In this document: positions 1 to 46,000 of the stretch, in pieces
Layout: each line of letters begins with the position of its first letter
Position numbering within the stretch: the stretch's first letter is position 1
Origin: Candidatus Omnitrophota bacterium
Lineage (GTDB): Bacteria > Omnitrophota > Gorgyraeia > Zapsychrales > JAKLDJ01
Assembly: GCA_022703585.1 (NCBI GenBank)
Contig: JAKLDJ010000001.1
Location: forward strand, 310,891 to 374,890
DNA length: 64,000 bases
Direction: 5' to 3'
Made by a program: the position numbers and the translations under genes
The notes under the pieces: generated by a model
Seen by the model: the letters and a program-made list of their open reading frames with translations, nothing else
The model's database searches: none
Told to the model about the DNA's origin: nothing

Positions 1-1000
1 GGGGGCCTATTTTTTCATATTTCAGGAAAGAGCTTAAGAGGTTTCTTCCTTGGGGATTATCCGGGCTATAATCAGCCAGCATTTCTCTGGTAATCCTGAG
101 GCGGATAACACCGGGTTGATCTTCGACGGGAACAATGTGCTCCTCGCCCCAGGGGACAGGATTACGCCGCAGATCTTCCATGATGGCATCTTCCCACCAT
201 GTTGTTTCTGCGAGGCCTGTCTTGAGATCGACGATTTCTTCGGATTCCTCGCCCTGACCTTCATCGTCCATCATCCCTGTCATCCCCATCATCCCCGGCA
301 GCACCATTACCAGCAGGCCGAGGTCGAAAACAGGGATAAAGGAGAACAGATTCTTTTGGGAAAACTCCTGTACGTCCTGTTCTGGTTTCGGCAATTTCGT
401 GACACAAAGAGTAAAGAAAGCAACCGTGCCATACTTATAGGAAGCCGTTTGAAGCAGCCATTTTAATGCCTCCACACCCACAATCGCTCCTCTACCCAGA
501 GATATTTCGAAACCGCCAAAGCCAGCCTTTTTTCTCAAGCGACCTAAAAGCGTCTCGGCAAGAACTGTCTCTATGGATAATTCATCATCTTCGAGATTAC
601 CTGTTTTATTAACAATACGTCTGTTGTCGCTTTTTCTTCGAACAACATCATCGTTATCGACGTAGTATTCTTCAAATAATCGCCTCCCGCTCTCGAGATT
701 TCCAACGCGTTCCGCTTTGAGCCTGTCCCCAGCGGAAAGCATGTCGCCGATCATCTGATAGATTTGCCCTCCTAATCCCTGCAAGGCCAGATTGGTCCTG
801 ACGCGGTTAAAGTAAATTGTGTCTAATGCTATCGCAATGGAAATTGTTTCATGTTCGTCATTTTCTTCGGTAAGCCGTCTGAGGAAGAAGGCATCGGAGT
901 TGGAAACCACACCGTCGACCTCTCTTTGCAGATAAACATCAACGCGATCTCCGCTCGCATCGGAGATAACGGCCTTGAGGATGTAGCTGTCGCCGCCTCT
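1..1000 (-). other. C-terminal-most module in the window; function unknown; acidic tail
   Basis: I translated 2-1201 codon by codon: ...LALQGLGGQIYQMIGDMLSAGDRLKAERVG...MMDDEGQGEESEEIVDLKTGLAETTWWEDAIMEDLRRNPVPWGEEHIVPVEDQPGVIRLRITREMLADYSPDNPQGRNLLSSFLKYEKIGP. There is no stop before position 1. Confidence 0.5.
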
Positions 1001-4000
1001 GGTTCTGACCTTTCGACCGTCCATCGTCATTCGGATTCTTTCCATCGAAAGCGTCTGCATCGCCCCCATCGTCCCCGGCAGCGCCACAAAGAGCAAAGAC
1101 AGCGCTTGCCCGGCAGCCAAAATAAATAACGGCCCAACCGTCGGCAGCAACCCGCCCAGGGCTTCTTCCTTTTCTTCGGATAGATAGGGATAGACTTCAT
1201 TGGCAAGCCAGTCGCATCCGTTTTTCTTTGAAATGTCGTCAACCCAAGCCGCAAAGACCGTCTGGTATCGATCGTAATCGTAGAACAAAGAAAGCGATCC
1301 CGGCCCTTCATACAGGAAGACATTGGTAGCCTCAAGTGAACGAAACTCAGGGTGAGATTTTCTCCACTCCAGGAACCATTCCCGGAAATAACTTGAGAAT
1401 TGTTCTCTGACAAATTCAGCAGGCGGGAGGGTTCGCTCGTAGAAAAACGGCTTTCTGGCACTGATAGCCGTGAGGATGCTTCCGGCGCCGGTTAAGAATA
1501 ACGGCATACGGCACTCATTTAAGAATTTTCCGAATCGGCTAAAGGGAATATAGCCCGGCTGTATCAATAAAACGCTGTCGTCGTCTGTCCTAGTCACTCC
1601 TATGTCGTTGCCTTTAAAATTGAATACGGCAATCTTTTCCTCTGCAAAAGGCAAGCCTCTTTGCCTGGCAACGTTTAAAGCCGCATGGAGCCAGCCTAAG
1701 TATTCCCGGTAAGAATCAGGGCGAAGGCTGTAGGGCATCACGGCTGTCCATCGCGCTCTTTTAAGAAATTCCGCGCTCACCGACGAACCTAAACGCTCCG
1801 CAAATAACGAAACCAGTTCTTCGCGGGCGCTTTCCTTGTCCGCTATTAACTCTTCGTCATAAATTAATCCCGGGCTAAAAATAGCAACGCTGGGGTCAAG
1901 CCATGTCAATTTCCTGCCGAGTTTTTCTGCGTCGGTTGCCAAATACGAACGCAGAATCACAGTGTGTCGCTCGGGAATAAACTCAGACACAAGAATGCTT
2001 ATCGGCGGGGCACCTGACCGGAGGAAATGCCCGGCCTGGCCGCGATCCGTCCAGTAAATGGCCGGGGATTGCCCGACAATTTCATCAAGATCGCTTAATC
2101 GTTCATGGGAGATATAGTGAATGCCGTTTATCACATTGCTATTTTCGGCTGTAACGAATTCGGGGAAAAGCCCTGCCATCAGTTCATAGTAATTTCTTTC
2201 CAGAAATACCTGAATTTTTACGTTCGGAAAACGTAATTTTAGATTGCGTGCCATTAACACCGCCATTCCTAAATCCCCGACGCCGTCGGTAAAACAGGTC
2301 GGCACAAAGTTAATGACCCCGCGGGCGGTATGCCACTGCGCGGAATAATCTTCGACTTCTCCCAGCGCAATCACCGGCAACGCCATAACGAACAAGGATA
2401 ACGCTTCCCCGGCAGCCAAAATAAATAATGCCCCGCTAAGCGGCACAAGGCCGTAATAAATTTCCCCCATCGGGTCTTGCGATGCGCGAATATTAATTTC
2501 AGGAATCACGCGGCCGCCTTCGAGGTCAAAGGCCATATCCAGCCAGCGGCGCTTATATTGGAAGATAAAGGCGCCCTCAGCAGACGTATCAATCATTTCG
2601 TCTCTAACGGCCTCAAATCCAATCTGCAAAAAGAGTTGTTCTGCCCCCTTGTCGGAAGGTTTGCTTTCTGCCAACAAGGCGTAATAGTCATGATGAGCAG
2701 CATCGATATCGATCGCCCGGAAGCTGTTGGCACCTTTTATCCTAGCGATCGCCAGTGTCAGGCTAATAAGCGCCGCGCCCAATCCCTGCTTGCGGTAACT
2801 AAGATCGACCCGAATAGCCGGGCCCATATATTCCTTAAATGTCTCCCTCAAGAAACCTGTGTGGGAAAATGCCTCGCCGTCTTGTTTGACATAAAAGTAG
2901 CGAGACCCAATTCTATTGGAAGAAGTTTTTTGGTAGACATCGATGACGTACGGCACGGCCAACCCCCTGGAGGTCTCGACCGCAGGGCCAGTCGTTAGCG
3001 TAAACTCAAATTCCCGTCCGTCTTGGGCGCGAACGGAAAGCGTAAGATTCCTTAATAGCGCCGCGGCCTGTTCAAAAATCACGCCAACCGGCACTGCGGC
3101 ATGGAGCCCCACGGGCAAGCCCGTGGTGCCTTTCTGTATTACCCTACTTCGCTCAAATACTTTCGTGTTTGAGCTTCGTAGGGTTATCCGCCCGAAAATG
3201 ACGGGCTTGGCCGTGCGGGCGGAATCTCGCCGAAGCATATTCTCGCATTCATCCACGGGCAAGCCCGTAATTTTCTGCGAAGGCGGATAAAGAACCGCTG
3301 TTTCGCCCGAAGAAGAAAGGCCGCTGCGGCTATCGTCCCCACCAATCTTCCAGCAAGAAGAATTAAGAGCCCGCTGGAAAGCAGCAATTGTCTTCCCACC
3401 AGCCACGGAGAGGTTAAGACAATGCTTTTTGAAGATTGCTTTCCAGCGGGACTTGTCTGCAGAATAAGTTCTTATCATCAGCGGCCTTATTGCCATCAAA
3501 AGAACTACCAGGATACCCAAAGCGCTCAGAACCGGCACATCAGCCCGGTATTGGCCGGGGGTTTGCGAGAAAGGATTGTTCCCATTATTTCCATTGTATC
3601 CGTTGTCGGTGCGCTTCGGCTCAATCGCCGCCTGCCGACGCATCTCGCCGATACACTCCCTTATCTCTCCAGCAAGCTGTTCATCAATGGTAATTCTCTT
3701 CCCTTCTTTCGTCTTCATTTTTCCGCTGAGCGCGAGATCCAAATCCGCTTCGGCCCGGTCGAGAAGTGTCAACAACAGCGACCCGCCAGTAGGGTTATTT
3801 TCTTGGGCCAAATGGTACAATTCGAACGGAACTTCAGTAAGATTGACATTATCGCTATCTAGGCGCAGATTCCTTCGGGTCCGATAAACATACTGTTCTT
3901 CCATCGCTTTAATACCCGACGGCTTGATCAAAAACCGGATAAAAGTGACCAGTGGCGAATCCCCGCGCTCTTCTTCTTTAAACCGGGCTCCGGTGTCACG

Positions 4001-7000
4001 GATAAGCCTGCGTGCGATACGGATCAAAAGGCCTGTCTCGTTATACGCCGCATAATAATTCTTATCCTTAACCAGATCGACCATCCTGCGGTCGGCGGCA
4101 TAAATCCCGTCCACGATTAAAATCTGCCCGTTCTTAAGATGCAGTATTTCTTTCTTCTTGTCATTACGCTTTCCATCTTTAAAATCATACGGCCCCGGAA
4201 TCCAAGCCGGCCTTCCTTCAATAATTTTTGCGAGCGCATCAAGGATAAGAGGCCAGGCATAAGCATCCGGGGAATCAAAGTCGTATAAATAATCACCGGC
4301 AAAATCGTGGATATACTCTCCGGATGCGTCCTGAATCGGAAGTACGTCGGTATCGGGGTTAAACTTCTTAGGGTCGTAATGCTTAGGATGAATCTTGTTC
4401 TTAAAGAACCTGTCCATGGGGAAGATGGCAAATATCGCCGGTGCCATGTCGCAGAAAGAGTCGGCGGCGATTGATTTTCCGCTCGCCGTCGGCCCTGCGT
4501 CTAAGAATATATTAATCTCGTCATCCTCGGCAAATTTAAGAAGCCTGACGAGCATTTGATCGCGGCGCTTCATAAAGTTTCGCTCATAAACATTTCTTTC
4601 CTTCTTGGAAGGCTTGAAATAATTCGGGTATTTAAGAATAATCGTTTTCATCTTCTCTGGAGATTCGCGCCCTAAGAGACCGACATAATCATACAGGTCC
4701 GAATAAAATTCTCTGGCCTCGCTGGGCGCCCTTAAGTCATAGAGCTCGAGCATATCGATAGAATTCTCTGTCTCGCTGATAATCGCGAAGGACCGGCCAT
4801 TGTGTTTGAGGATATAATACCGCTCTTCATCAAGCTCCCCGTGGATAATAGGCAAGTGCGCCCGCCGGACATCATGGATGCTGATCCGGGTCTTAGTATA
4901 ACCCGAAGGGCTCCCCTTGTAATCAGGGATTGACAAAGGCAACGGATAACGGCCGTCCGTCGGGGTCTTGCGATGATATCCGGCCCCCGGATAGGGCATG
5001 CTGGGTATAAAGGAAGGCCTGGTCTCGGGGTTGATAGCCACAACCGCATTGTGCAGCCGTATGTAGGGCTCTGTTTGCCGGGTGATTTTCGCCAACTCGC
5101 CCCTGCGGGTAAGCTCGATAACCGCATCATAGAGTTCACGTTTGATCTGGCGAGTAACCATCAGCCTCCTAAGCCTAATGGTGACAAAATCTTCAAAAGA
5201 TAAATAATAACCGTTACGGTAATACGGCCGGGAGAAATCAAGGTCAAGGGAATCGGCTATGTAAAGAATTTGTAATAACGGCCTCAAACGGCTGCCTAGA
5301 TGCAGATTTTTACTGTTGAGTTTGTGGTGCACGGAGGCCAAAGTAATGGCGGCTTCAATCGTATCATCGACACGCGCAAATACTTTACGAGATTTGACGA
5401 CATCGATAACGAGTTTTTGATGTTTCTGCCTTAAGGAGTCGACTTCCTGCCGTCGCATCAAATGCGCCGAGCGCAAATCTTTTTGCAAAGATTTATGAGC
5501 CTTGCCAAGTTCGTGAATAAGGGCGGCCAAGACCAGAATCCTCTTATCCTCTGTCCCCAGGTTAAGCTCCCGGGCTAACAGGAATGCTATTTTTGCGGTC
5601 CGGAAACATTGCTGCTTAACGCCGTCGATAGCGCCGGAATAGGCGTCTATAATTTTTATCAGAAGGCCTTCGAAAATACCCAACGGTCTCCTGCCGACCC
5701 CCTTGTAAGGGACATATCTTCTTAAGAATTCTAGGAATTCCGTTGCCTCCGCGCGCGCTGCCTCCTCTTTTGTCCCGCCAAAATGAATAAACTTGTGCTC
5801 TGCGGCTAAATCCTGGACCAGATACGACGTAGCCATCTTCAGGGCATCGGCCCTGGAGATTTCTCTGCCTTCCTCTCTCGCTTTCTGTATTTGCACCGCC
5901 ACTTCGGTTTCAATAGGGGAAGGATTTTCTTCAAGCATTTGTTTTAAAGTCGAGAGGGCGGCGTAAAGATGCGCATCCTCCGTTGCCGAGGCGAGATACA
6001 GGTTGATAATCTGCGCGGGGGTTAAATTAAGCCGGTCAACCAAAGAGTAAATAGCCTGTTCTGTTCTAAGCAAATCGGCTTCGGGGTGCTTGCGTTGCCA
6101 GTGTTTAAAATTATTTTGGGCGATAAAATCGCCAAACGTTTCTGTAAATAAGCTTGAAAGCCGATTACCGCGCGGCAGGAAAAACGGGAACAGACACATC
6201 AGGGACCCGTCTTCGCCCTGGCCCGGCTTATGATAATAGTCAACAAAGGAAATCTGGTCTTCAATGACCCCCACAACAGCTACAACCACTTCCCGGGCGT
6301 GAGGGCCATTGGCGCCAATGCGAATGATATCCCCGGGCATAAGGGATATAGACCCGTGTAAAGCGGCTATATTTTTCGCATCCGCTTCTCTGAGACCATG
6401 GAGCATGTAGACTGAGGTATCTATGAATCTTTCTGCGGCGACAGTAATATGGCTAAAGACCTTCGCATGAAACCCATGTTCGGTATAAATTTTTAACTCG
6501 GCAACCGCGTCAAATCTCCTTTTGTCACTTTCGCTGATTGTTCCAAGAAGCAAAATACCCAAAGCCATAACCTTCCAAGGCAATAATAGATCAAGCGGCA
6601 AGAGGAGTGCCCGAACCGAACCATCTCTATCCGATTCTGCCTTAGGCGAACGGGAAGCGGCCATTAAGTCCCTAATCAACCTGGGGATCCAGCCCCAATC
6701 AACACCAACAAAAGCACCGAGCTGCTGGCTGTCGTCTCCATCTTGGCTCTTGAGTTCTGCTAATTCCTGTTGCAAGTGCTTCCTGATCTTCTTTAAGAAT
6801 TCTTCAGCTGGCATGCCCGGATTCTCTATGGTGCCAATCACTTTCTTTTCCTTCTTTCCGGTCTGCGGATTAACTTCTTCTTTGGTCAAATAAGTCACCG
6901 GGGCTTCAGAAATTTCGCCTGAGGTCTCTGAATCAAATCCGCGCATATGAATGCCGTTGGGCCCGATCAAGACATAGGCGCCTTCACCGCCGAACTTTTT

Positions 7001-10000
7001 CGCCATACCCTTGTCGCATTCGAAATTGGCGTAATCACCGTCTTGCGTCATAAAGGCGGCCTTTAATTTGCTTAAGACATTGTGCCCTGTCAACCAATTC
7101 GGGACTTTAATCAACGACTGGATCCTGGCAATACCGATTCTTTCGCGATAGTATTTACAATGGTTCGGTTTGATGCGGGTTGTCGCGTCCGAATACCAGG
7201 AATTGACAAGATGAAGCGCCTCCCAGAGTGTGCGGAGCGGATAGCGCGGGTCTTTGATAACTCGCGAGATCGCCTCCAAGGCTGCAAAGATGTCCGTGCC
7301 TGTATACGCCTTCCCTCGATAAGTGATGATGATAGAGCCATCGTCTTCCACAGGGAACCAGCCGTGAGATAGCAGATTGTTGTAGGGGTCTTTTAAGAAG
7401 AGGTTGAAGTTTTCTCGATAGAAACGAGCCAAGGACTGCAGGGCAGGATTAGTCGGATAATTGGCCTGGGTGAGCTTGTTGTCGCCTAAAAGCATTGCGT
7501 TAATCTCGTCGATAACGGCAGTACCCCAGTCTTTATGGCTGGACCAATCTTTGCACCACCATTCAACCGAAGCATAGGCCTGGGTGTTAATGGATTCAAA
7601 GACCAGATACCACCACTTTCCTTCGGCAAGAGATTTTGATAATCGATCCTTAACTGCAGAGGTAATCGTCTTTGATAAGCCGATGGCCTCCTGCCAAAGA
7701 GCCAATTCGGCAGCATCAGCCCCGGCCTCTGCCCTGGCCCGGTGGACCTGAATCAGTTCCCGGACAAGCTCATTCCACCAGACGCCAGAAGTCTTGCCCA
7801 TACCGTTTAACCCTACAAAAGGATCGGGGACTTCAATGCGTTTGAAATGGCCGGCAAACTTCTCCCAGCTATCGAGTTGTTGACTATTCCACTGGCCGCT
7901 ATATTGTTTATACCCGTCGACAAACTTCTGGCGAAGAGTTGATACCTGGCCGCCTAAGAATTCCTTCTGGAATCTGTCCTGGTCTTCAATGTATTCGGCA
8001 AGGCGGGCAGTCCACCAGAGAAAATCATTCACGTTCTTAGGATCCGTGGCCCTCTTCGCTTTTACCCAAGCTTGCGCCCTGCGGTTAAAGGCGGAGAAGG
8101 CAGGAACAGGGCTATCGGTATAGAAGTTAAAGTTTTCATACCAGGGCAGATGAATACCAAGCAAGTTGCCAAAGGCCCAGAAATCATGGTTGCCGCTCAC
8201 ATAGAAGACTCTGTCGGGAGCGGTCTCAACAAGTTCCTTGGCCAGGTTAAAACATTTCATACCGTATTTACCCCTGTCCAAAAGGTCGCCATTTAAGTAG
8301 ATGGCCCCATTCATGGTCTTAAGAGACAGCCCCTGGATATTGAGTTGCTCTTCAACCGACATGTTGGGATCGATCTGGCCTTTGAAACCACAAAGTTGAT
8401 TTAAGGCATCGCTCAGGATAGCGGCAAATCTGGCGATATCGCCATGATAATCCGAAATGACAGCGATTCGCGGCAGGCAACCGCTGCCGGGTTTCTTTAA
8501 TTCCTTACGGATCTCCCTGAGAAGTAATTTAATTTGCTTAATGCGTTCTTTTGAATCAGCCTTGTAGATAAAGCCGATTTGTTCATAGGTGTCTTCCTTG
8601 CCGGAGAGCGTCCCCAGTGACATAAGCGGCAACCCGGCCAAGAGCAATAGTTCAAAGGCCCCGAATAGGGTCATCGCCCACAGCTCATCACCGCTTCGAA
8701 TGCCGGTATCGCCTTTTTGCGAAAGCGACGATTGTGCCGTCATCATAAGGGGGCTGGAAGGCTCGCCTGTCTCTTCGAGGGCGATGGTCATCAGGCCGCG
8801 GGAGTTCAATCGCGCTTTATAGCCTAAGCGAAGAAGGACTCTAAGAATTCCTTTTAATAACAGGTCACTGTCGGCATAACGGCCATTCTGTTCCTCTTCA
8901 ATCTTTTTCAAGTCCTCAAAGAAACGTTCAAGATACAAATTCCGTAATCCCTGAACATAGAGATCCCTGGCTGCTGCATCTACGTCCGGGATGACATACC
9001 GGATACTATCTTTAGACACACCGGGCCGATAGTTAAACTCACGAGGAATCAAGCGCCCGTTTTTCTTTTCATATTGAGCGAAAGACGATTCCGAACCCAG
9101 AAGCAGCCGTCCGCCTTCTCTTAAAGCACGGGTGAGCGAGAGCCAGAGGCGATCCCGCTCCCAATAATTCTTATAATGAACCACAAGATTCATGACGCGT
9201 ATAAGGTCGACACCCTGGGGATATAACCGAGCCAAAGTATCAAAACTGCCAAGATGAATCTTGGTATTCGGGATTAAATTCAAATGCCCGTCCAGATATT
9301 CCTGCGCAGCCCCGACAATCCACGGGTTATTGTCAATGCCTATAAGCTCTATATCTCTATTGCCGAGTCTATTACGTAATTCAAAGAAGGTCGGCGAAGA
9401 AGCCTCACCCGGCGCGCCCGGCACAGAACCAAGCCCGACATCGGCCATGCGCCTGACTGTTCCCGTTGATTCCATCTGAGGAATAAGATGACCAATCATA
9501 TATTGATCAACTGAAATCAGCCGCATGGGTTCTGTATAGGCGAGAGTCACGCGTCCCCGGCCTTGCACTAAGCCGGCCTGATCATTCAGGGCGCCTCTTA
9601 CCGTTCCCAGCAGGAATATGAGGCCAAGGCCGCTGATGTCAACCATAGCGCGCAGGTCACCTTCAGGCTCATTGGGTTGACCGGCTGAATCGGGGACAGT
9701 CCCCGCTTCGGCGGGCCCGGCCTCGGTGAGGCCCAGCAGGGCCGAGGCGGGGACTGTCCCTTCTTTCAAGGATTTCAGCGCCAGAATAATCGCGTACGGC
9801 CAACCGTTACTGGAATCCCAAAACATTGCTCGGCAACGGTTCCTGATTTCTTCCCGGCTAACCGTTTGCGGATCAAGCCCGGACAGTTTAATACCGGCAA
9901 TCGTCACGCTGGATCTTCTGGAGTTAAACACAAAATTCCGAGGCGTGAGGCCGTGCACATCGACTCTATTTTCTATTAATCGTTCGATAAGCGTATTCAT

Positions 10001-37000: not shown

Positions 37001-40000
37001 GAGCCCCATAAAGCCGCTGTTTTCAATTTCTTTTTGGCCGATTTCAGCAAGCCATTGAGCAGGGTATTTACCCTGGTAACCGCCGTTATGCACCGTGTAT
37101 ACGCTGGCAGTCTTCTTGAATTCCTGGCGGTAAATCGTACGCATATACAAAGGCACGAGGGCGGTATGGTGGTCACTGACGTGGATAGCATCCGGCCTCA
37201 CACCTAATTGTTTCATCATCTCCAGCGAACCGCGGGAAAGAAGAACGGAATCCCGGAATTCCAGCCGCATTCTCTTTTCTTTGTTTTCCTCATGCTTGGC
37301 GTAGGCCCGGACAAAGGCTTCCTTGTTATCGGCAACCAGCCAGTAAACGGTAAAGCCATTCACCTGGGCTTTTTTGGCGCGCAGAATTTCTATGCCGGAG
37401 TTAAACGGAATTTCAATAACCACACCCGTGTCTTCGGCGCCGTAAGATTCCATAACCTTGGCAATCGACGCAAAGCCGGGGAGGATAATACTGACCTTGT
37501 TGCCCAGCTTGGATAATGTCCGGAAATATTCATAGACATAATCGGCCTGACCGCCGACTTTTTCTCCTATCCTGGCAGCTTCCGTGGCAATGCCGACAAC
37601 CTCACCTTTGAATTGCGACACAACGCCAACCCGGCCGTTACCGTCAGGCAAATCAGCCCAGCCGATATTCCCCTGGGCGTCAACAAATTTGAATGTATAT
37701 TCAAAGTTTCTGATAGGCTTTATATCGACCCGGTAAAGCGCGCGGCCCCTGCTATTGCGGACAAAGGTCGCCTCGGTATCCGCCCATTCCCACGGATTCT
37801 TCATGTTGGAGTGCAAAAATGCCTTTAAGGTACCATCGTTGGGGCGGTTGGCATACGCTGTAAGCGTAACCTTTTGGCCAATCTTCATCGGGGCGGGAGA
37901 CTTTCTTAAATCGCCGCTTAAAGCACCTAAGGCGACAACCGGCATCATCGGCATTAAAAACAGGAACGCCCCCAATTCGGACGTTTGTGTTCCCTCATCA
38001 GTCTCTCCTGGCACGGCTCGCGGCACCTGCGTCACAAATACTTTTCCGTTGCCATACGGGAGGCTCGCCCAAGCAAAATCACCGTTGAGGCCTTCAAACT
38101 TCACGGTCCATTCGAAACTCCGGGCTGGGAATATCTTCAGTTCGTAGACGGCGCGGCCTTCAGCATTCTCGACGAATGTGAACGGCGTTTCAAAATCCTG
38201 CCACCGGCCGCTGATATCGGAATGAAGGATAACTCTCCGTGTGCCGGTTGCGTCAGGAAGATTACCATAGACCCTTAAAACGAGTCCCTGGCCTGCCTCA
38301 ATTTCGTGGCGCGCTTCTTCGAGGTCGCCTCCGAAGATGTTCGGGATGCGCCCTGCCAGGGCCTTTTTTGCCTCTTCGACAACCGTGTTTTCAAAAGCCA
38401 TTTGTTCCTCTTCGCTTCGGCCGAAAACATGCAGCGCTTCTTCGCGGGTCTTGACGCCTGCCGACAATAACCTGGCATATTCCTCTTCGGCAGCAATGAG
38501 CAGGGCATCTTCATACCGGATAGGACTATGCGTATGATATTCTTGCGGATCTTTAGGTAAGAACGGTTCCATATTTTCTGACACGGGAAGAGTCGGCAGG
38601 ATCTCCATGTCTTTCCTCGGGAATACAACGAACACGTACGGGCCGTAAGGATGCCGGGCCGGCGCATAGGGGAAGTAATGGGTCGAGGCCCATTCATAAT
38701 TTTTCGTTAAGGACGTCGGATTAGACCTGTTGCTGTAAGGTGTATTGAGCAGGGCGCCGCGGCGGTTGAGGACAACAGCCAGAATACCCTTAAACCCGAC
38801 ATTCCTCAACAGAAGTCCGGCACCTTCTCTTTGTATCCTCTCCCGTTCAATGTCATATCTGTACTTGTACGTTTCATAAACGCCAACATTGTTTTCTCGG
38901 TCAACAAAAGTCAGCTCAAAAATCATCTCGCCAAAGTCCGAACTTTGATATACCACGGTCGCTGGCGGATTACCGGACGGAACGAGCAGTGTCCCTCTCG
39001 ACCAGATCCTGTCCCCGACGGCATCAATCCTATAGGCGCGCGGTTGACCGTGCCGGTTAAGGATGATCACATCGCCGCATCCCCACAATTCGACCGGTTT
39101 ATTGCAGAACCTGCCTTCGTTGAATCGGGCGATTGTCCTTAAGATAGCGGCAAACCATTTTCCCGGCTTTAACTCACCATTTTTTGCGTTAGCCAGAATG
39201 AATTGCACAGATCTAAAATATTCCGGATAGGATATCATCCTGTTGATCAGGCGATTACTCGGATTACCTGTGCGGCCCAAGCGGTCAATCTCATAGGAGA
39301 GGAAAATCTTGAAGGCGTTATAAAGATGACTCAGGCGGGCCTGATCAGCGGCAAGTTCAGGGGATTCCGGCAAGGTGCGAACGGCGCGGACGTTTACATA
39401 GACGGTATTCCCGACCCCCTGGAGTAATGGGCCGGCCTTACCGTGAATCTCAAGAGCGAATTCTCTTTCTGTCTGGTTCATCATCCAGTCAATCAGAAAA
39501 TCTTTCTTCGCATCAAAACTGAAGGCCAAGGCGTCGAGGATTCGTTCGGCCTCAGGAAGAGCTGTGCCTTGAGGGAATGTGACGGTGATTTTATCATCGG
39601 TTCTTTGCACTCTCACCGGGAAGGTAACCGGTTCAAAGCCGGGAACTTCCTTCGCCATTACAGGGAATATCCCTTCCCAAATATTCGCCTCGTCCCGGAC
39701 TTGGCCCAGGAAGAAACTCGCCATCGACATAAACGGAATAATCGGCATCAAAGGCATGAGGGCGTTAAGAGATTCTTCAACAACCGACACTTCGCGCAGG
39801 CGGCGCTCAAAAGCGCTGCGGGCTTCGCTTAAATCTAGCAGATTGAAGTGGGGTAATTCTTCCTTCAGGAAAATGCCATGGCCGGCTACTTCAGGAACGC
39901 CATAACCGGTAATCATCCCTTCCGGCTTTGCCTTTCCTCTGGGGAAGATGTAAAGCCGGGTATCGGCTCCTGCCTGTCTTGTTACCCAGAGAATGTCAAT

Positions 40001-43000
40001 CATGTCTTCCGGCATGTGGAGGGCTTCGATTTTTCTGCTGGCGCCATCGACGATTTGCGCACGGGTTCCTTCGTAGACAAAATTCACGGCAGGCCAATTA
40101 TGGACACGGCTGGCATTATCAGGAGTCCGCTGAGTAAGTTCTTTTTCAACAATCGGGAATTGACCGAAGTAACCCTGGAAGTGGGCGTGCGTGCGAATGC
40201 TCCGGCCGGGGCCGTTCCAGAGAATGGACGCGCCGGGCATCAGTTCTGAAAGAATGGCCCCTATTCTGGAAATTTCGTTTAAGGACGGATAAACATTATG
40301 TTTGCGGTAAGAAATAACAAAGCTGGGCAATTCTTTCTTGTCATCGGTTCCCCAGAAGAACGGATTAACGTAGATATCCCAATCTCTTAAATTCGTATGG
40401 AACCGGCCTAAGTTAACGCCGCGTTCAACCAGCGGCATAAAAGCGCCGCAGAGATTACATTTGTTTTCGTCAGAATGCTGCTGTTTGAACAAATTCTTTA
40501 AAACGGTATCCCGGTAAATCTGTTTCAGCGCCAGATAAATGCCGTAGATGCCGTTTTTGCCGACATTATTAAGGATGTTGGCGAGGGCTGACTTTTTCTC
40601 GAGCGATATCCCTTTGGTGTAATTGGCGCCGCGATGGGAAACATTCACCAGCCGGTAATCTTTGCCGATCGGATAAATGGTAATACCTTCTAACTGTTGC
40701 CGTGTAATAAACCCTGCCTTCATTTGCTGCCGGGTAAGGTTCCGATAGGCTTCTTCAATAGTCGTGCCTTTGATCGGTCTAACCGCATTGCGCAACTCGC
40801 GAACCTTGCCGAAAAGAATGGCGAGAGCGGCAACAGCGGCAAGGATGGCGAAGCTCACGGGTTCAAACACTAATGCGGTAACATCTTCGCCGGGATTGGT
40901 TCCGTCGTTCCTGGGTTGATTGCCTTGTGCGGCCGGATCCGATGCCACAATGGGCCAAATGTTATACATAGGGAAGTTATCGCGGACATCCAGTGATTCA
41001 ATCAACGCCTTGGGCGCTGTCAAGACTCCCTTAATATCAAGTCGATCAAATTGGTCAACAGTCAAATCAACGATGAGCGTTTGCCCGGCGACATCGACCT
41101 CGGCATAACTATGGCCTTTACGTTCCGACTCCTGGCGTCTGATATAACGCGCCGTAAGACCGCTTTGCTGCGCCAATGTGACCGTGTGCTTAGCCCCTTC
41201 GGCACAAACAAACGGAAAATCATCATCAAACTCAAGAGACCTGCGAAGATCAGGAATAGTCTTGGTATCGTTCCAATGCCGGAGGATGACGTGCGTATCT
41301 CTTAAAATGGCCGCGAAGGTTTTAATCTCCCGCGCTTGGGCCGGAGTAACTTCAGAGTTTTGTTCGGCAGTTATCCAGCGGCTGAAAATGACGGCGAATC
41401 GTTCCGGGGTTAAGCTCACAAAGTCTCTGGCGTTAAAGTTTGCCGGTACCGGTGCATCAATATCTGAGCCTACCTCAGAAATATCCTCTTTCACGCTCAA
41501 TCTTTGGGCAACGATTTCTCCATCCTCAGCCTCCGGCTCTCCAAGATCAACTATATCTCCCAAGACTTCCATAATCTTTCTTTGCAATGCGGCTGTAGCG
41601 TCGGATGGGCTCTTGACCGGTAAAAAGCCTGTTGCTCTGTCAACAGTCACAAATAAAGAGTTTAAAAGAATCGTAATATCCCCCAAAAGGTAATCATCGG
41701 GTTGATAGACCTTGGTAATAAGAAGTACTGAACCTTTATAGGTTTCTTTGACGGTCCACTCTCTGCCATCAGACAACGTGACCTTTCTTAGGATACCGTC
41801 TTTCTCCTCCACTCTCCTCATCTCTTGACTCTGGTCAACCAGGGCCCGCAGTTCTCTATTATCCGTAATATCTTCGGTAATCTCTTTTGGCGCGAGATAA
41901 GGAAGATGCATTTGTTTCTTCATTGCACGGATTCTCTTGACCAATTCGTTTCGCGGTAACGCACCCATCCTGTGTAGAATTTCTTCAGCTGTTAATATCC
42001 CTTGTTCGTAGAGGGGTTGTTCTTCGGCGGAGATATAACCAAAAAGCTTGAGTAAGGCAGATACCCTCATAACATAGGTTGCGGTGTTAAACTCAGGGAT
42101 GGCATTTTGGTTGAACCCGTCTATAAAACAGAAACCTTCGCGCAACTGGTTACGCCCATCAATGGAAACAACCGTCCCGCCGGCCTCCGGCTTAACCGTA
42201 AACTCATACTGGTCCGTAACATCTCTGCCGTCTTTATACGCCCTGATGTAACCGGCAAAGTTGAAGGCAGGATAGTCGGCAAAGGCCTCGGCCGGAGTTA
42301 AGTCTATTCCCCCTATGCTGATAAAATCCGGGACATCAATGGTTAAGTCTAAATCACTAATAGTGTCTTTCACCGTGTCGCCGTGGGGAACAGATCCGTC
42401 CGGCCCCCGCCTTTTTAATGTCTTCCAGACCTCACCCACGACCCTCCCTTCTTTCTTATGGGTCACGGCGATCATCAGGGCTTTTTCGGCGACGACAGCC
42501 AGGACATCCTTGCCCGAGCGATGCAAGAGGCCGATAAACCCGGGATCAACAATCTGAGCTTTGCCTAAGTTGTCAATATTTGAGAAAAAGGCAAAATGCG
42601 CGTTGTCCTTCACCATATCTCTTAGCCTTCCTTCCAGGGCTAACCATTCGATAACGGCAAAATGACCGCCCGGGCACAGATCGTCTTCTCCGGTTACCAG
42701 CTTAAATACTTTTCCGTCCCGGGTCATTTTCTGGAAAACTCCGACCATGTAAGGCCTGATTTTAGAATTAAAACCGGTTTTCGATAAATACCTCATAACC
42801 GAGTTCTGGGTAGAATAGCTGTTAGCAAGATAAACCGGGATTGCAGTTTTATACTGTTTCTCCATGTAGCGAATATGGGCAAGCTTAAGATCGATAAACG
42901 TCCGCCCCTTACCGGCCCAGTTATCGATGATGGTAAACAAGGCTTTCACTGTCCCCCCGAATCGTGTGGCCAGGCCGCCATTAAGGACAACCTGGGCAAC

Positions 43001-46000
43001 CCGGTTACGTACCCTGATGGTCGCCTCGCCAAATGCCCTGTCCCCCGGGGTAATAGCAGCGTAAGACACCATGGAGGCATCTTGTACAGGCTGTTGAGCC
43101 CTCAGTTCAAGATTACCGATAAGAGGATCTTTTTTGCTTTTAACGTTCTCGATAACCCCTGCTTGAATAGCTTCAAATTCTTCCTGATTACCGGAACCGC
43201 TATAGTCCCGCTCTACCAGAAGGTGATTTTGTAATTCTTCCGGAGAAGAATTTTCAATCGCATCTGCCCCCAAAACATACTTAACAACAATGGGTTTACC
43301 GCCAAGAATGAAATAGAAATAGGTCGTCGCGGGATAGCCTGAAGTTTCCCTGATGACGATCGTCGAAATCGGGGCATGCCACTTGAAGCCGTATTCGGCA
43401 AATTCAGCCTGCAATAAATCGTGTATTTCTTCAACGCCCATCCCTTCCCGATTCAACGCCTCAAGGCGCAGAAAGATTTTTTTAAGAAAATCATCTGACT
43501 CAGAGGTAGTAATCGAACCAAATAACGGCGGAACAAAGGCAAGTACGGTGGCGGAACTAAGAGGCGTGCTAAAGAGGACGGTGGCAGCGAATAAGGCGGC
43601 AGCGATAATCAGGATAGCGGGCCCACCGCGGATACCGCCCTTCTTGGCCATCCAGTCGCGCACGGTTGAGGAAGCATCTTTGGTATTGCCTAATTGCCCC
43701 AGAAGCAGAATGGTCGGCATAATCATCATCGGCGCCAAATTCATCAAAGGCATGATGGCGTTTAGAGGCTCTTCGGGGGCTTTGGGCGCCTTGCCGGCCG
43801 GGTTGGCGGGCGCCTTCGGCGCAGCGGGCGTGTTGTCGACGGCTGGGCCTTTTTGGGTTAAAGGCGTGGTTTTGATGATTTCGAGGCGTTCGGGAGAATC
43901 AACGAACCATCTCGACTCATAATAATCCTCTATGTCATAATGTCCAACCTCAGGTTCATATCTAACTTCAAAATCATAACCTTGTTCTCGTATTTCTAAT
44001 GCTCTCTTCAAATAAAGATATAATAAAGAGGATCTATCCGTCGGTAAAGATTGCTGCATCTTCGCTAACACTTCAGAAACTAATTTGGCTTTTTTGCCGC
44101 CAATCGTAATTATAGATTCGGCAACTTCGAGAGAGGGTTCTTCCATCAACAAATTCCATAATGCTTCTTCTGCTATCTTATCTCCAGCTTGACCGCGAGC
44201 TATCAGCCTTCTCTTAGCTTCTGTCTTCTCTTCGGCAACCTTTTTCTCATGACGTCCAATGAGAGCACCAATGATATATATTACGGTAACGATAGCGGCA
44301 ATCACGCCCGCGATCAGCGGAAGGTCGGCGTGGACGGATGTAGAGCTGGGCCGAGTTTTGGGTAAATGTGACATTCGTGCATCATAAGTCTTAAATTCCC
44401 CTGTTTTTTCGTCAATAAGCGTCTGTGCAACTTCAGCTCGTGAAGCATTAATATCAGGAACCGTCTTCCAAATCAGGCTATTGGCCCAGGCAACGATTTC
44501 GGCTTTCAGCTTTTCTTGTCTTTTGTCAACCGGGGCTAAATCGACGCGCGACAAATCATTGCCGATGTTACTTACAGTTTGTTCCGGATTGTTGGCCAGG
44601 CCGGCAATAATAGCCTTGACTTCCTCCTGGGTTAACTCTAAGTCCTTTATTGGCCTGAAAAGATTTCTCTGGCGGCTAATCCTCCTAATAAATTCTTTAA
44701 ACCTGTCAGGATAATTCTTAACAAGATGCTCTAATGCTGATTCGCCCTTGAGGCCTAATTCTTTTGCCAAAAGACTGTCTTTTTGTGTAAGTAAATCCCA
44801 TTCATAAAAGCCGCCGTTTAAGAGCCGCATGACCGGCCAATGGGTGAATTTATGCAAGACAACAGAAAGGGCACGTTTTTCCTGAGCACTCGTAAGCTTA
44901 AGTTCATTAGCTATTTGATCCTCGGTATAGACAATAGTTTCCGTTTTGCCTTGAAGATGGTTGTATAACTTACGCGTTACTCCACTTTGCAAAAATCTTC
45001 CGCTCCTCACAAGGCCACGGATAACTTCGACTAAGGCAACCGCCCCTAAGCCACCCACGAACAATGTTAAGCTATTAAAATAAACGCCCACAGCCAATGT
45101 CAATACACCCACAAGAAGAGAAGAAATAATAAGCCTGCCCTTAACATTAATTGTCCTGGTTTTATCCGCCGCTTTTTCGCTGTCGTCTTTTTCTTTAGAA
45201 GATGAGAATCTGGATTTAACGGCTGGTATTATTTTCTTCATGGATGAGAGTCTGGATTTAACGGCTGGCATTATTTTCTTCATCTCCGGCATTTCGGGAA
45301 CATTGAAGTCACAGCCATATCTGTTGGCAATCTTTTTCATAATATCAAAAGAAGAATACCATCTATTTACCCAGAAACCTTTAGCCACATCAGCAAACAT
45401 TTCTCGGGAATTATTGTCAATAGAAAATCTCAAGGCCAACGGAAGAATCACGGTTACGTCTCCCAAGCCAAACATAACAGCCAAGGCAACAGTCAAGAAT
45501 CTCTCTATTGTTTTTTGGAATAAGAACGGCGCCGAGCGGGTATTCTTTGCGTTTGATATGCCAAGACCGGTAAGCATCGCATATATGCCGGCCATGGTAA
45601 AAAGGATAGCCGGATTAACCAAAGTAATGCCAGAAAACGCCATGCCTGCAAGAGCAAGCGTCATAACAAGCGGGCTTATCCAGTTCGTCCTGTGGTTAAC
45701 ATGAATAGCACGGGAATTAAAGAAGTGCGGCCCTACATCATAAGCAAACAAAAGAATGATATAGAGAACAGCGCTTACTAAGAATACCGCCGGATGATAC
45801 GGCGCAACAAAAATAACCAGCGGAAGAAGCGGGGTTGCGATCATCGGACCTATTCTCATGTAATTATAAATCTCTTTGGCGTCTCTTCTGTTAACAGCTG
45901 TTATGCGTGCCGCCATAATAAACACGTCTTTACCCTGGGTAGTATCTCTGGCCACGGCAAAGGCAAAGAGAGGATGCTGTGACGTAGAGAATACCGCCGC

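Follow-up and report, generated by a model that had tools for sequence, protein, structure and literature searches.

The 64-kb stretch of DNA analyzed here (64,000 nucleotides; the window) lies within a single giant open reading frame (ORF) in which ~21 enzyme-sized modules are parted by one recurrent short element; this element probably serves to keep the modules at the membrane, to mark sites at which the chain is cut, or both. The element consists of an acidic patch closing one module, a cap L-x-A-[FL]-x-P-G-x-E, and a Leu/Met/Pro-rich hydrophobic stretch, and its sequence and distribution are best read as those of a lineage-specific junction element. No prior description of such a junction motif was found in the literature searched.

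The giant ORF and its modules

A six-frame stop count of the window shows 0 stops in the 21,333 codons of minus-strand frame 0 and 672–1,487 stops in each of the other five frames, so the window (1..64000, minus strand) is an inner piece of a single ORF, at least 21,333 aa long and open at both ends. Residues are numbered such that aa 1 corresponds to window positions 64000–63998 and aa i starts at 64000−3(i−1), running downwards. The initial annotation described modules strung together without intervening stops, as is indeed the case, and all 14 peptides that it quoted are present exactly in this frame, within ~40 nt of where it had placed them. The ORF is tiled by enzyme domains and most closely resembles the multi-enzyme giants of Omnitrophota, which have been described as membrane-anchored with cytoplasmic enzyme content, and for which transmembrane (TM) calls disagree between predictors (10.1101/2023.11.21.568195; 10.64898/2026.06.07.730766).

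The enzymes flanking the linkers are of cytoplasmic type, and include glycogen synthase, UDPGP, radical SAM, epimerase, GGDEF, HPr, and others. Pfam matches are present in 14 of the 21 segments that follow a motif (8 at E<=1e-5, 6 weak), beginning 31–789 residues past the motif and within ~150 residues in 11 of the 14; the copies themselves sit in linkers, in agreement with the proposal that they mark module boundaries. The radical-SAM-like and GGDEF-like matches are both weak (E about 3e-3), as is the methyltransferase-like match. Peptidase-like modules are also embedded in the ORF, corresponding to an M23 domain (aa 807–918), an HExxH module (aa 10166), and an HExxH-X18-E module (aa 12683). 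In an AF2 model the beta-sandwich + GlgA module forms a block with pLDDT mostly 80–98 over aa 8704–9339, a predicted fold that is a complete ADP-glucose glycogen/starch synthase, and the motifs on both sides fall outside it (pLDDT 30–54).

Consensus and copies of the junction element

The consensus is [DE][DE]-x-L-[AG]-A-[FL]-[VLM]-P-G-x-E followed by ~16 hydrophobic residues, for a total hydrophobic length of ~22 residues, and many copies terminate in L-G-x-x-x-[GAS], as judged by eye. Over the three residues immediately upstream of each anchor, 31 of the 63 positions are Asp or Glu (7.8 expected) and basic residues are nearly absent; on both sides the flanks are acidic or neutral and never basic. 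The initial observation of a recurring element is confirmed: there are 21 copies in the aa 6746–21244 region, spaced 259–1,905 aa apart (median 607), and they are isolated in linkers between unlike modules and outside polytopic bundles, rather than being internal TM helices of one polytopic domain. In a leave-one-out HMM test, with the acidic and hydrophobic blocks shuffled separately and 500 decoys per instance, 15 of the 21 copies have p<=0.01 and 17 have p<=0.05. When the whole protein was locally shuffled 50 times, a model of all 21 copies scored no more than −0.3 bits.

The copies are numbered here from the N-terminal end, and all are on the minus strand. Element 1 (APEEP LNAIMPLMNLAPMMIMPTILLLG; 43697..43795, aa 6736–6768, anchor 6746, p=0.002) lies upstream of a classical TM helix and, beyond it, a UDPGP module, and element 2 (VVEES LNALMPLMPIIPFMSMASFFLG; 39704..39799, aa 8068–8099, anchor 8078) has the same p=0.002. 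Element 3 (TQTSE LGAFLFLMPMMPVVALGALSG; 37913..38005, aa 8666–8696, anchor 8676, p=0.006) lies 8 aa upstream of the beta-sandwich + GlgA module and outside its fold (pLDDT about 30–36), and element 4 (DQEEKS LFSLLPLALAPFALLGMVTAS; 35897..35989, aa 9338–9368, anchor 9348, p=0.004) begins 15 aa past the point where the GlgA profile match ends and forms the first residues of a duplicated UDPGP module. The peptide LAFVPPLFGSI (aa 6819), originally listed as an occurrence, is a degenerate copy recognizable only as a paralogue of element 4. Element 5 (GEDDDS LGAILPGLEIFALMALAMVGVGILAC; 33845..33952, aa 10017–10052, anchor 10027, p=0.002) is the most TM-like copy, with a summed dG of about 0. The weak element 6 (DQAETD SHAFVPGISLLLALGQLINLGMAMGQ; 29720..29827, aa 11392–11427, anchor 11402, p=0.09) is upstream of a radical-SAM-like module, element 7 (EAEEEIT LAAFVPGEEIFGLLSVLPAVMAGLLAPLLLAGPAVFVAGI; 28058..28207, aa 11932–11981, anchor 11942, p=0.002) has a long hydrophobic part, and element 8 (RRDDT LAAFVPGVEVFSLLMSLPALGMI; 27332..27430, aa 12191–12223, anchor 12201, p=0.002) has the top leave-one-out score of 31.5 bits.

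Element 9 (SGAEV LASFMPGLPLLFFALAPILGMA; 26453..26548, aa 12485–12516, anchor 12495, p=0.002) precedes the HExxH-X18-E module and is followed by element 10 (RGDDT LAAFVLPGFEMLALVPMMVLAAI; 25127..25225, aa 12926–12958, anchor 12936, p=0.002). The Rossmann fold of the epimerase module begins 9 aa past element 11 (GDEDDGEGR LGAFVLPGFEILTTFFALAAMV; 23282..23377, aa 13542–13573, anchor 13552, p=0.002). Element 12 (EGESSEY LGAFMPFALLPLIFLPVMGGLSWF; 22076..22177, aa 13942–13975, anchor 13952) also has p=0.002, as do two copies additional to those listed initially, element 13 (NNGES MTALIPGLELLGLMLSLGMTLAG; 16364..16462, aa 15847–15879, anchor 15857) and element 14 (SSDGE VSALLPVIEILAVMPVFANSLSVILTAVFLSG; 13925..14050, aa 16651–16692, anchor 16661), the latter upstream of a second radical-SAM-like module. 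The degenerate, borderline element 15 (GAEDGE VAALLPAGGIFAGLEALMAAANMAFAFVALA; 12308..12430, aa 17191–17231, anchor 17201, p=0.046) precedes the GGDEF-like module, and element 16 (NEPEGD LRAMVDISGLGLIFLLGTV; 9599..9685, aa 18106–18134, anchor 18116), which contains no Pro and reaches p=0.002 at a low 8.1 bits, precedes the methyltransferase-like module. Upstream of the Metallophos module is the degenerate element 17 (RSGDE LWAMTLFGAFELLLLAGLPLMSLGTLSG; 8600..8713, aa 18430–18467, anchor 18440, p=0.10), and upstream of the HPr-HD module is element 18 (SDRDGS VRALLLPLDLLLPWKVMALGILLLGTIS; 6533..6646, aa 19119–19156, anchor 19129, p=0.01). Element 19 (YYGLVPLSGALFILAAGEALSLFVMALPVIALG; 2360..2488, aa 20505–20547, anchor 20515, p=0.37) is the weakest and bears little likeness to the core motif, but is a paralogue of the borderline element 20 (EEKEEA LGGLLPTVGPLFILAAGQALSLLFVALPGTMGAM; 1058..1189, aa 20938–20981, anchor 20948, p=0.02). 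Element 21 (EFSQKN LFSFIPVFDLGLLVMVLPGMMGMTGMM DDEGQGEE; 269..379, aa 21208–21244, anchor 21218, p=0.07), also additional to the initial list, is weak.

Origin and membrane behaviour

The ORF contains a single recent internal duplication (79% identity, 675 aa) that starts with the hydrophobic motif and ends with an acidic patch, so a module carries the motif with it at its N-terminal end, as had been proposed. Where copies share an amino acid, the codons are identical in 264/766 cases (233 expected), indicating that synonymous sites are near saturation and that the motif is not a recent DNA repeat but is kept by selection at the protein level. Pfam and NCBIfam models give no match to the element above cut-off, consistent with the initial view that it is no described sorting motif, and sequence searches found no second motif-bearing protein. 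The motif model detects the element in none of the stand-alone GlgA homologues among 150 retrieved matches, nor in the multi-module homologues. Homologous GlgA modules in Omnitrophota MAGs lack the motif; one protein (P0001) joins two GlgA modules without a hydrophobic segment between them, and in some Omnitrophota relatives a polar SSP[ILVM] motif is present at the equivalent junctions. The element thus looks to have been acquired in a polyprotein context rather than inherited from free-standing genes.

The hydrophobic segments of the motif are a class apart from the classical TM helices of the ORF. On a position-independent Hessa-type scale they score worse for insertion, with a median summed dGapp of +3.1 kcal/mol for motif segments and +1.1 kcal/mol for the other hydrophobic segments of the ORF. 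The motif segments are richer in Met (8.7% vs 2.5%, p=3e-7) and Pro (7.7% vs 4.2%), poorer in Ile+Val (12.7% vs 23.7%), and carry Glu and one or two Pro. The initial annotation saw the copies as relic N-terminal signal-anchors of formerly separate proteins, an idea with only partial support; they are isolated, inter-module, and N-terminal, but a separate origin is not borne out by the GlgA homologues, and the copies make poor signal-anchors given the acidic upstream flank, the lack of a basic flank on either side, the Glu and Pro content, and a median summed dG of about +3 kcal/mol. Exactly one motif segment parts each of the pairs GlgA/UDPGP, radical-SAM-like/GGDEF-like, methyltransferase-like/Metallophos, and Metallophos/HPr, such that full spanning would place enzymes that need nucleotides or cofactors outside the cell, and crossing at every copy would leave neighbouring nucleotide-dependent enzymes on opposite sides of the membrane. 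The alternative offered in the same annotation, that of a polyprotein-like giant with a repeated membrane tether or processing site, is the better reading.

Possible roles of the element

We tentatively favour the element as lineage-specific 'punctuation' of a giant multi-enzyme polyprotein, which would associate with the membrane but translocate none of the adjoining modules, and which may also be a processing site. The hydrophobic stretch would bring each junction to the cytoplasmic membrane as a marginal, Pro-kinked anchor, non-spanning or loosely inserted, and could conceivably be captured by SRP/YidC-type machinery on leaving the ribosome; cytoplasm-type enzymes would then be strung bead-like along the inner membrane face with no module carried across. 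The sequence-specific cap suggests recognition by a protein partner, so this site may double as the point at which the chain is cut. Acidic flanks are, however, unexpected for a segment on the anionic cytoplasmic leaflet, and a simple anchor would need no conserved L-x-A-F-x-P-G-x-E cap; both count against this reading. Given the polar SSP[ILVM] motif of the relatives, moreover, membrane contact cannot be what junction motifs do in all of these giants.

It is possible, though rather unlikely, that each copy is foremost a processing or sorting signal recognized by a dedicated membrane-associated or intramembrane protease or sortase-like enzyme, with the precursor cut into dozens of proteins; the junctions would then be the cellular counterpart of those in viral polyproteins and of tripartite C-terminal sorting signals. 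Each product would start with a short acidic tail and a hydrophobic helix as an N-out/C-in anchor with the enzyme cytoplasmic, or would lose the helix. A specific cap with a Pro/Gly-rich helix is the architecture of sortase, exosortase, and rhombosortase substrates (PMC3237569), but the element lacks a basic cluster and a C-terminal position, and curated models all score below cut-off, the nearest being a sub-threshold Heimdall-CTERM (PGF-like) match to element 11 (15.6 bits; cut-off 24). The L-G-x-x-x-[GAS] ending resembles a signal-peptidase c-region, and a different short motif at the relatives' junctions is as expected of lineage-specific cleavage sites; cleavage of such giants has been suspected in published work, which lacks sites. 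Cleavage would also account for an otherwise paradoxical feature of the ORF, the same N-out/C-in charge signal on all of its classical single TM helices. The embedded peptidase-like modules could be pertinent, but M23 enzymes are peptidoglycan hydrolases, a family search gave no significant match for the HExxH modules, and the window is wholly intra-ORF with no processing enzyme gene in view.

Ordinary bitopic TM helices, with the chain weaving through the membrane once per module and the shared motif a by-product of common descent of linker plus module, are improbable. DeepTMHMM-type predictions for such giants imply this topology, the density of predicted TM helices reported for published giants is one in roughly 370 to 1,500 residues, ~22 hydrophobic residues are enough to span a bilayer, elements 5, 7, and 19 have summed dG values of no more than +1.4 kcal/mol (roughly −0.1 to +1.4), and some copy pairs are clearly paralogous. 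Most copies, however, have positive summed dG with Glu and Pro in the core, single segments lie between adjacent cytoplasm-type enzymes, a positive-inside signal is absent on both flanks, the composition differs significantly from that of the ORF's other hydrophobic segments, and the cap is common to modules that are mostly unrelated to each other. More doubtful still is a role away from the membrane, either as a hydrophobic docking or assembly peptide for module bundling or scaffold binding, or as a largely neutral linker or recombination junction spread by module shuffling. The acidic flanks disfavour membrane binding, in relatives some junctions, as in P0001, contain no element, and the 79%-identical duplication begins and ends within the element, between acidic patch and hydrophobic cap, as fits a recombination joint. 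Persistence of the amino-acid motif despite near-saturated synonymous sites argues against neutrality, though, conservation lacks the significant helical-face periodicity expected of a packing interface (p=0.07), and 21 exposed 22-residue hydrophobic stretches would presumably risk aggregation in the cytosol.

An open frame of enzyme modules

The entire window is open in one reading frame. A frame-by-frame count finds 0 stops in the 21,333 codons of minus-strand frame 0 (in which aa 1 corresponds to window 64000-63998) and 672–1,487 stops in each of the other five frames, such that the whole window corresponds to an internal fragment of a single giant gene with both ends open. Eight ORFs of at least 150 aa are listed under the bacterial code when ORFs running off the window ends are excluded.

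With at least 21,333 codons the frame exceeds the 10,000 aa in a single ORF that characterizes the Omnitrophota multi-enzyme giants, and distinct enzyme families tile the chain with none dominating, as judged from Pfam matches against the family list of 10.64898/2026.06.07.730766. A hydropathy scan identifies 54 hydrophobic segments, in agreement with the ~2% of residues in transmembrane (TM) segments that is typical of these giants, although this is a hydropathy rather than a DeepTMHMM value. The Pfam matches, all on the minus strand, include an M23 peptidase (aa 807-918, window 61247-61582; E=1.3e-8), which is the sole match in the first 6,700 residues, two UDPGP domains, a GT5+GT1 starch/glycogen synthase, HEAT repeats, a NAD-dependent epimerase, a Metallophos domain, HPr and an HD domain, together with weak matches to radical SAM (twice), phosphorylase, HD_4, GGDEF, methyltransferase and GNAT. 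The Archaeovorin-type, TM-rich giants of the Omnitrophota (West-Roberts et al. 2023, 10.1101/2023.11.21.568195; 2026 preprint, 10.64898/2026.06.07.730766) likewise have ORFs of >10,000 aa, are likewise tiled by GT5/GT1 starch synthase, HEAT, radical SAM, HD, GNAT, methyltransferase and peptidase domains, and likewise have hydrophobic segments every few hundred residues. The domain layout of the window is thus the 'multi-enzyme metabolic' architecture of these giants, as set out in the two papers.

Over its N-terminal third the fragment has a different make-up. No Pfam family is matched at E<=0.01 in five 1,000-residue chunks covering aa 1001-6000 (window 46001-61000), and the first copy of the junction element described below appears only at aa 6746. 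The unannotated stretch continues beyond aa 6000 to aa 6745. The G+C content is 0.435-0.453 in window 44001-52000 (~aa 4000-6666) versus ~0.48-0.53 elsewhere, and this low-G+C stretch encodes two polytopic hydrophobic clusters (aa 4841-5174, window 48479-49480, and aa 5921-6324, window 45029-46240). Neither cluster matches a Pfam family even at E<=5, and no protease- or insertase-like family is found in them.

A repeated element at module junctions

The remainder of the chain contains a recurring element composed of an acidic patch, an L-x-A-F-x-P-G-x-E cap and a hydrophobic stretch. The initial annotation had counted at least 15 occurrences; the 14 peptides it quoted are all present exactly in the stop-free frame, no more than ~40 nt from where it had placed them, and a hydropathy scan with alignment raises the count to 21 copies between aa 6746 and 21244. 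Copy-to-copy distances are 259-1,905 aa, with a median of 607. Anchored at a near-invariant Pro, the consensus is [DE][DE]-x-L-[AG]-A-[FL]-[VLM]-P-[GL]-x-E-[LI]-[LF]-x-L-[LM]..., and the hydrophobic run extends from position -5 to about +16 relative to the Pro (~22 residues, ~16 of them after the cap). In the upstream flank (positions -12 to -7) up to ~60% of residues are D/E, with the maximum at -8/-7, and K/R are scarce (0-28% per column, and 0% at -8). The downstream flanks are mixed or acidic and not basic (e.g. 7 acidic and 0 basic residues at one copy, and 4 and 2 at another).

A model built from the 21 copies gives a top score of -0.3 bits across 50 locally shuffled copies of the protein. 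In leave-one-out HMM tests with the acidic and hydrophobic blocks shuffled separately, 15 of the 21 copies are recovered at p<=0.01 and 17 at p<=0.05, the weakest being those at aa 20515, 18440, 11402 and 21218. Synonymous sites differ between the copies, and positions with the same amino acid are codon-identical in 264 of 766 comparisons over all pairs versus the 233 that codon usage predicts. Conservation of the motif is thus at the level of protein sequence, and a recent DNA repeat is rejected as the source of its recurrence. Conservation on one helical face, as in a zipper, is not significant (p=0.07), and a 2A-like skipping site, an intein junction and a lipobox are all rejected on sequence, there being no NPGP and no Cys/Ser/Thr at the required positions.

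This is a conserved, selected junction element, in which an acidic patch, a specific cap and a marginal hydrophobic helix lie between modules and outside their folds. Every copy is located in a linker and none is in a polytopic cluster. Fourteen of the 21 inter-motif segments have a Pfam match, which in 11 of those 14 begins 31-152 residues past the motif. The GlgA module illustrates the arrangement: positions 3-475 of the 477 in the NCBIfam GlgA profile correspond to aa 8801-9333, and the following motif starts 15 residues beyond the end of this match. An AlphaFold2 model of the module using a 58-homologue alignment (mean pLDDT 87.6; blocks within the fold mostly average 80-98) has an N-terminal beta-sandwich and a GlgA fold spanning aa 8704-9339, and Foldseek matches it to Arabidopsis starch synthase IV (6gne) and E. 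coli glycogen synthase (2qzs; TM-score 0.88 on target). Both flanking motifs are outside this fold, with pLDDT values of 30-36 for aa 8676-8696 and ~50 for aa 9348-9368.

A UDPGP-containing module of 675 aa is present twice on the minus strand at 79% amino acid identity (aa 6814-7488 and 9348-10022; window 41537-43561 and 33935-35959), and its boundaries show how the element is divided between neighbors. The first residues of the repeat unit are those of the motif's hydrophobic part (aa 9348, matching 6814), and its last are an acidic patch (GEDDDS, matching GEPEAEDGE); in the older copy the acidic patch has no hydrophobic motif after it. The two halves of the element thus behave as parts of different modules, the hydrophobic cap forming the N-terminus of the one that follows and the acidic patch the C-terminus of the one before. 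At the upstream UDPGP copy the hydrophobic cap is degenerated (VLAFVPPLFGSITT) and a strong classical TM helix precedes it.

Other internal similarities on the minus strand are a radical-SAM-like pair (aa 11416-11876 and 16698-17153; window 28373-29755 and 12542-13909), 36% identical with E=4e-85 and each weakly matching PF04055, and a pair of beta-sandwiches of ~120 aa each that are 39% identical (aa 8556-8675 and 8694-8813; window 37976-38335 and 37562-37921). The beta-sandwich pair directly flanks the third junction element (aa 8666-8696), its downstream member forming the N-terminus of the GlgA module in the AlphaFold2 model; this beta-sandwich is a candidate carbohydrate-binding module. 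Two further module pairs are alike in the motif only. With just four or five module pairs paralogous, module duplication does not account for the recurrence of the element and is rejected as its origin.

The motif segments also differ in composition from 32 other hydrophobic segments of the same ORF. Met (8.7% versus 2.5%; Fisher p=3e-7), Pro (7.7% versus 4.2%) and Glu (2.1% versus 0.2%) are all more frequent in the motif class, whereas Ile and Val together are less so (12.7% versus 23.7%). The median summed dGapp over 19 residues is +3.1 kcal/mol (range -0.07 to +6.0) for the motif class and +1.1 for the others, many of which are below 0, these values being indicative only as the scale is a position-independent one of the Hessa type. 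A basic cluster follows each of the classical, strongly hydrophobic single helices, i.e. the ordinary TM helices at aa 6560, 7707, 10278, 10456, 14864, 15331, 17732 (aa 17732-17761, window 10718-10807, minus strand) and 20155, and follows the helix in no copy of the motif. By eye, some classical helices (aa 7707, 11188 and 17730) appear to share the motif cap, but this is rejected by a cap-only HMM, which does not detect them. Taken together, composition, basic clusters and the cap-only model indicate that the two classes are discrete.

Known signals, topology and possible function

Both papers on giant proteins handle hydrophobic segments as generic predicted TM helices (10.1101/2023.11.21.568195; 10.64898/2026.06.07.730766), whereas the junction segments of the window stand apart in sequence, with a cap that is conserved and flanks that are acidic. 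TM-rich multi-enzyme giants are already known, but in text searches of the two papers we found neither a conserved module-separating junction motif nor the junction element described as a hydrophobic-segment class of its own. The 2023 paper gives the cleavage points of giants as unknown (10.1101/2023.11.21.568195).

Tripartite C-terminal signals (LPXTG, PEP-CTERM, PGF-CTERM/Heimdall-CTERM and GlyGly-CTERM; Haft & Varghese 2011, PMC3237569) resemble the element in having a signature motif, whose counterpart here includes P-G-[F/x]-E, followed by a hydrophobic helix with helix breakers. They likewise occur in many copies per genome in proteins unrelated outside the signal, with a preceding linker that is low-complexity or acidic. 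The element differs in being internal and repeated within one chain rather than at the extreme C-terminus, each of the first 20 copies having 259-1,905 further residues before the next copy and the last (aa 21218) at least 116 residues to the window edge. It also lacks a basic cluster after the helix, and the cargo is cytoplasm-type enzymes rather than secreted proteins. Ten copies compared with curated models have no Pfam match and a single sub-threshold NCBIfam match, to Heimdall-CTERM (NF045529) at 15.6 bits versus a cut-off of 24, from the LPGFE copy at aa 13552. The element thus departs from the tripartite C-terminal sorting signals in the basic cluster, the C-terminal position and the model match, and the lack of a match above cut-off in either set of scans agrees with the initial annotation, which did not recognise it as any described sorting motif.

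The prepilin (class III) signal consists of G|F-x-x-x-E and then a hydrophobic helix, and is N-terminal with a short basic leader, Gly at -1, Phe at +1 and Glu at +5. The likeness lies in a small residue, a Phe, an acidic residue a few positions on and then ~20 hydrophobic residues. However, the window element places its Glu 5 or 6 residues beyond the Phe (F-V-P-G-x-E or F-V-L-P-G-F-E) and not 4, the leader is acidic rather than basic, the position is internal rather than N-terminal, and no prepilin N-terminal domain model is found in Pfam/NCBIfam scans of ten copies at E<=10; the element thus lacks the defining features of a prepilin-type signal. Many giant genes are close to type II secretion-like genes, according to the abstract of the 2023 paper (10.1101/2023.11.21.568195). 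The positively charged n-region that defines a Sec-type signal peptide or signal-anchor is likewise missing, the residues before the hydrophobic core being acidic.

Two systems in which long chains are divided offer further parallels. In flavivirus-type polyproteins, internal signal/stop-transfer segments between units set membrane association and define cleavage sites, and as in the window there are hydrophobic segments between functional units of one long translation product. Those segments follow normal topology, so that successive units fall in lumen and cytosol by turns, and signal peptidase or a viral protease cuts them, whereas in the window such alternation is implausible and cleavage is putative. 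MARTX toxins are, like the product of the window, giant bacterial proteins with several enzymatic modules, and these are freed by autoprocessing at short linkers via an embedded cysteine protease domain (CPD). The MARTX linkers are not hydrophobic, and are cut after Leu in unstructured linkers once InsP6 in the host cytosol has activated cleavage; a CPD-like domain of this kind is not detected in the ORF.

The placement of the enzymes bears on topology. Exactly one motif segment lies between GlgA and UDPGP, between the radical-SAM-like and GGDEF-like domains, between the methyltransferase-like and Metallophos domains, and between Metallophos and HPr, with the GlgA, UDPGP, Metallophos and HPr matches being strong and those to radical SAM, GGDEF and methyltransferase weak (E ~3e-3 to 1e-2). 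These enzymes require ADP-glucose, UTP, SAM with a reductant, GTP or PEP-derived phosphate. If every motif segment spanned the membrane, one partner of each domain pair would be outside the cytoplasm. The classical helices, which are far apart, all carry the same N-out/C-in orientation signal, and this is not satisfiable in an uncut chain. The paradox posed by the domain pairs is also met in the 2023 paper, which attributes it to unreliable TM calls, TMHMM and DeepTMHMM giving different results (10.1101/2023.11.21.568195); marginal motif-bearing segments would explain that inconsistency.

The mechanistic readings of the element all rest on one sequence. We tentatively favor, at somewhat short of an even chance, a reading in which the helix brings each junction to the cytoplasmic membrane without translocating the neighboring module. 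Each junction would be held at the membrane by its hydrophobic helix, the adjoining module would stay untranslocated, and the enzymes would be arrayed along the inner membrane face. The cap would be recognized by some protein, as is implied by its sequence specificity. Tethering leaves the acidic flanks unexplained. A rather unlikely alternative is that the cap serves a dedicated membrane protease as its cleavage or sorting site, with the released modules keeping an N-out/C-in anchor; this would resolve the recurrence of one orientation signal on all of the classical single helices, and the ORF itself contains three peptidase-like modules (M23, HExxH at aa 10166 and HExxH-X18-E at aa 12683). 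Neither HExxH module has a significant family match, however, and were the protease soluble the hydrophobic stretch would be left unexplained. We regard it as distinctly improbable that the copies are ordinary bitopic helices, a reading that has the ~22-residue hydrophobic run in its favor and both the discreteness of the motif class and the placement of the enzyme pairs against it. Very improbable, too, is that the element has no membrane role and acts as a docking peptide, or that it is no more than a near-neutral recombination joint.

The two HExxH modules are candidate processing peptidases on the basis of their motifs, of which there are two in the ORF versus 0.4 expected. The first (aa 12683, window 25940-25954, minus strand) is HERHH, followed 18 residues later by 'WLMEGFAEF' in a gluzincin-like HExxH-X18-E arrangement, within an otherwise unannotated module of 441 aa. 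The second (aa 10166, window 33491-33505, minus strand) has a non-significant M48 match (E=0.19), which is the only result for the HExxH regions in Pfam at relaxed thresholds. A sequence search of the PDB with the HExxH module gave no match, and an AlphaFold2 model made without an alignment is unusable (pLDDT 43).

Junctions in related proteins

In an exhaustive HMMER search with the GlgA module the best relatives are 35-50% identical and are in fragments of 700-6,091 aa; among the ten best matches, those with a named source (37-47% identity) come from Candidatus Omnitrophota MAGs, with a single exception labelled Lysobacterales. Word-indexed protein searches with a 2,010-aa six-motif region, a 647-aa module and the 21-copy motif alignment gave no match, and related-locus scans of GTDB genomes and JGI metagenomes gave no relative. 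A degenerate DNA pattern for L-[AG]-A-F-V-P-G-x-E has 8 viral and at least 119 metagenome matches, which are presumably chance matches as none of those listed has a hydrophobic tail or a second copy. The initial annotation had proposed that the element derives from N-terminal signal-anchors of formerly separate proteins. Against such a relic, in stand-alone GlgA proteins the fold begins right at the start of the chain, the homologue P0001 has two GlgA modules joined without a hydrophobic segment, and the motif model detects none of the 150 best GlgA-module homologues.

Some of these homologues have a different motif at their junctions. P0007 and P0010, both Omnitrophota MAG fragments, contain 11-12 copies each of the polar motif SSP[ILVM] versus 0.2-0.4 expected, and P0002 and P0004 have two copies each. 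The motif recurs every ~100-1,000 residues, and around the homologous beta-sandwich and GlgA module one copy is just upstream and another is 12-21 residues past the 'NVYAWL'-type C-terminus, the distance being 12-15 residues in P0007 and P0010. It therefore occupies the same module boundaries as the element of the window, but is short and polar and lacks both the hydrophobic stretch and the acidic patch. We know of no description of an SSP[ILVM] motif. Its presence at the same junctions in relatives suggests a general principle and not a peculiarity of one gene, such that junction motifs seem to be a general, lineage-variable feature of giants.

The element bears on whether giant bacterial chains are cut into pieces and on how cytoplasm-type enzymes are to be reconciled with dozens of predicted TM helices. 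It offers objective module boundaries for the structure prediction and annotation of giants, singles out a class of hydrophobic segments that ought to be kept out of counts of ordinary TM helices, and supplies exact peptides to seek by proteomics as well as exact positions to mutate (Pro, Gly, Glu and the acidic patch). A broader and, in our estimate, unlikely proposition is that giants carry encoded, lineage-specific 'punctuation marks' (here an acidic patch, L-x-A-F-x-P-G-x-E and a Met/Pro-rich helix; in relatives SSP[ILVM]) that would be read by a dedicated protease and/or insertase. If true, giants would offer a cellular parallel to the processing of viral polyproteins, and the marks would form a new class of sorting signal, internal and repeated.

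Several GlgA-module homologues (P0001, P0006, P0009, P0012, P0013, P0014, P0017 and P0019) share a conserved C-terminal tail, 'GGIDL ... ~35 aa ... G-F-[VT]-P-V-I-I-N-I-x-P ... FLG', and many of these carry at their N-terminus a signal peptide along with a conserved ~400-aa domain ('LIKYFLAALTVPE.D.WVNLSPYE'); neither the domain nor the C-terminal tail has a match in Pfam or NCBIfam. The 'GFVPVI' of this tail and the 'AFVPG' of the window's cap are alike by eye only.
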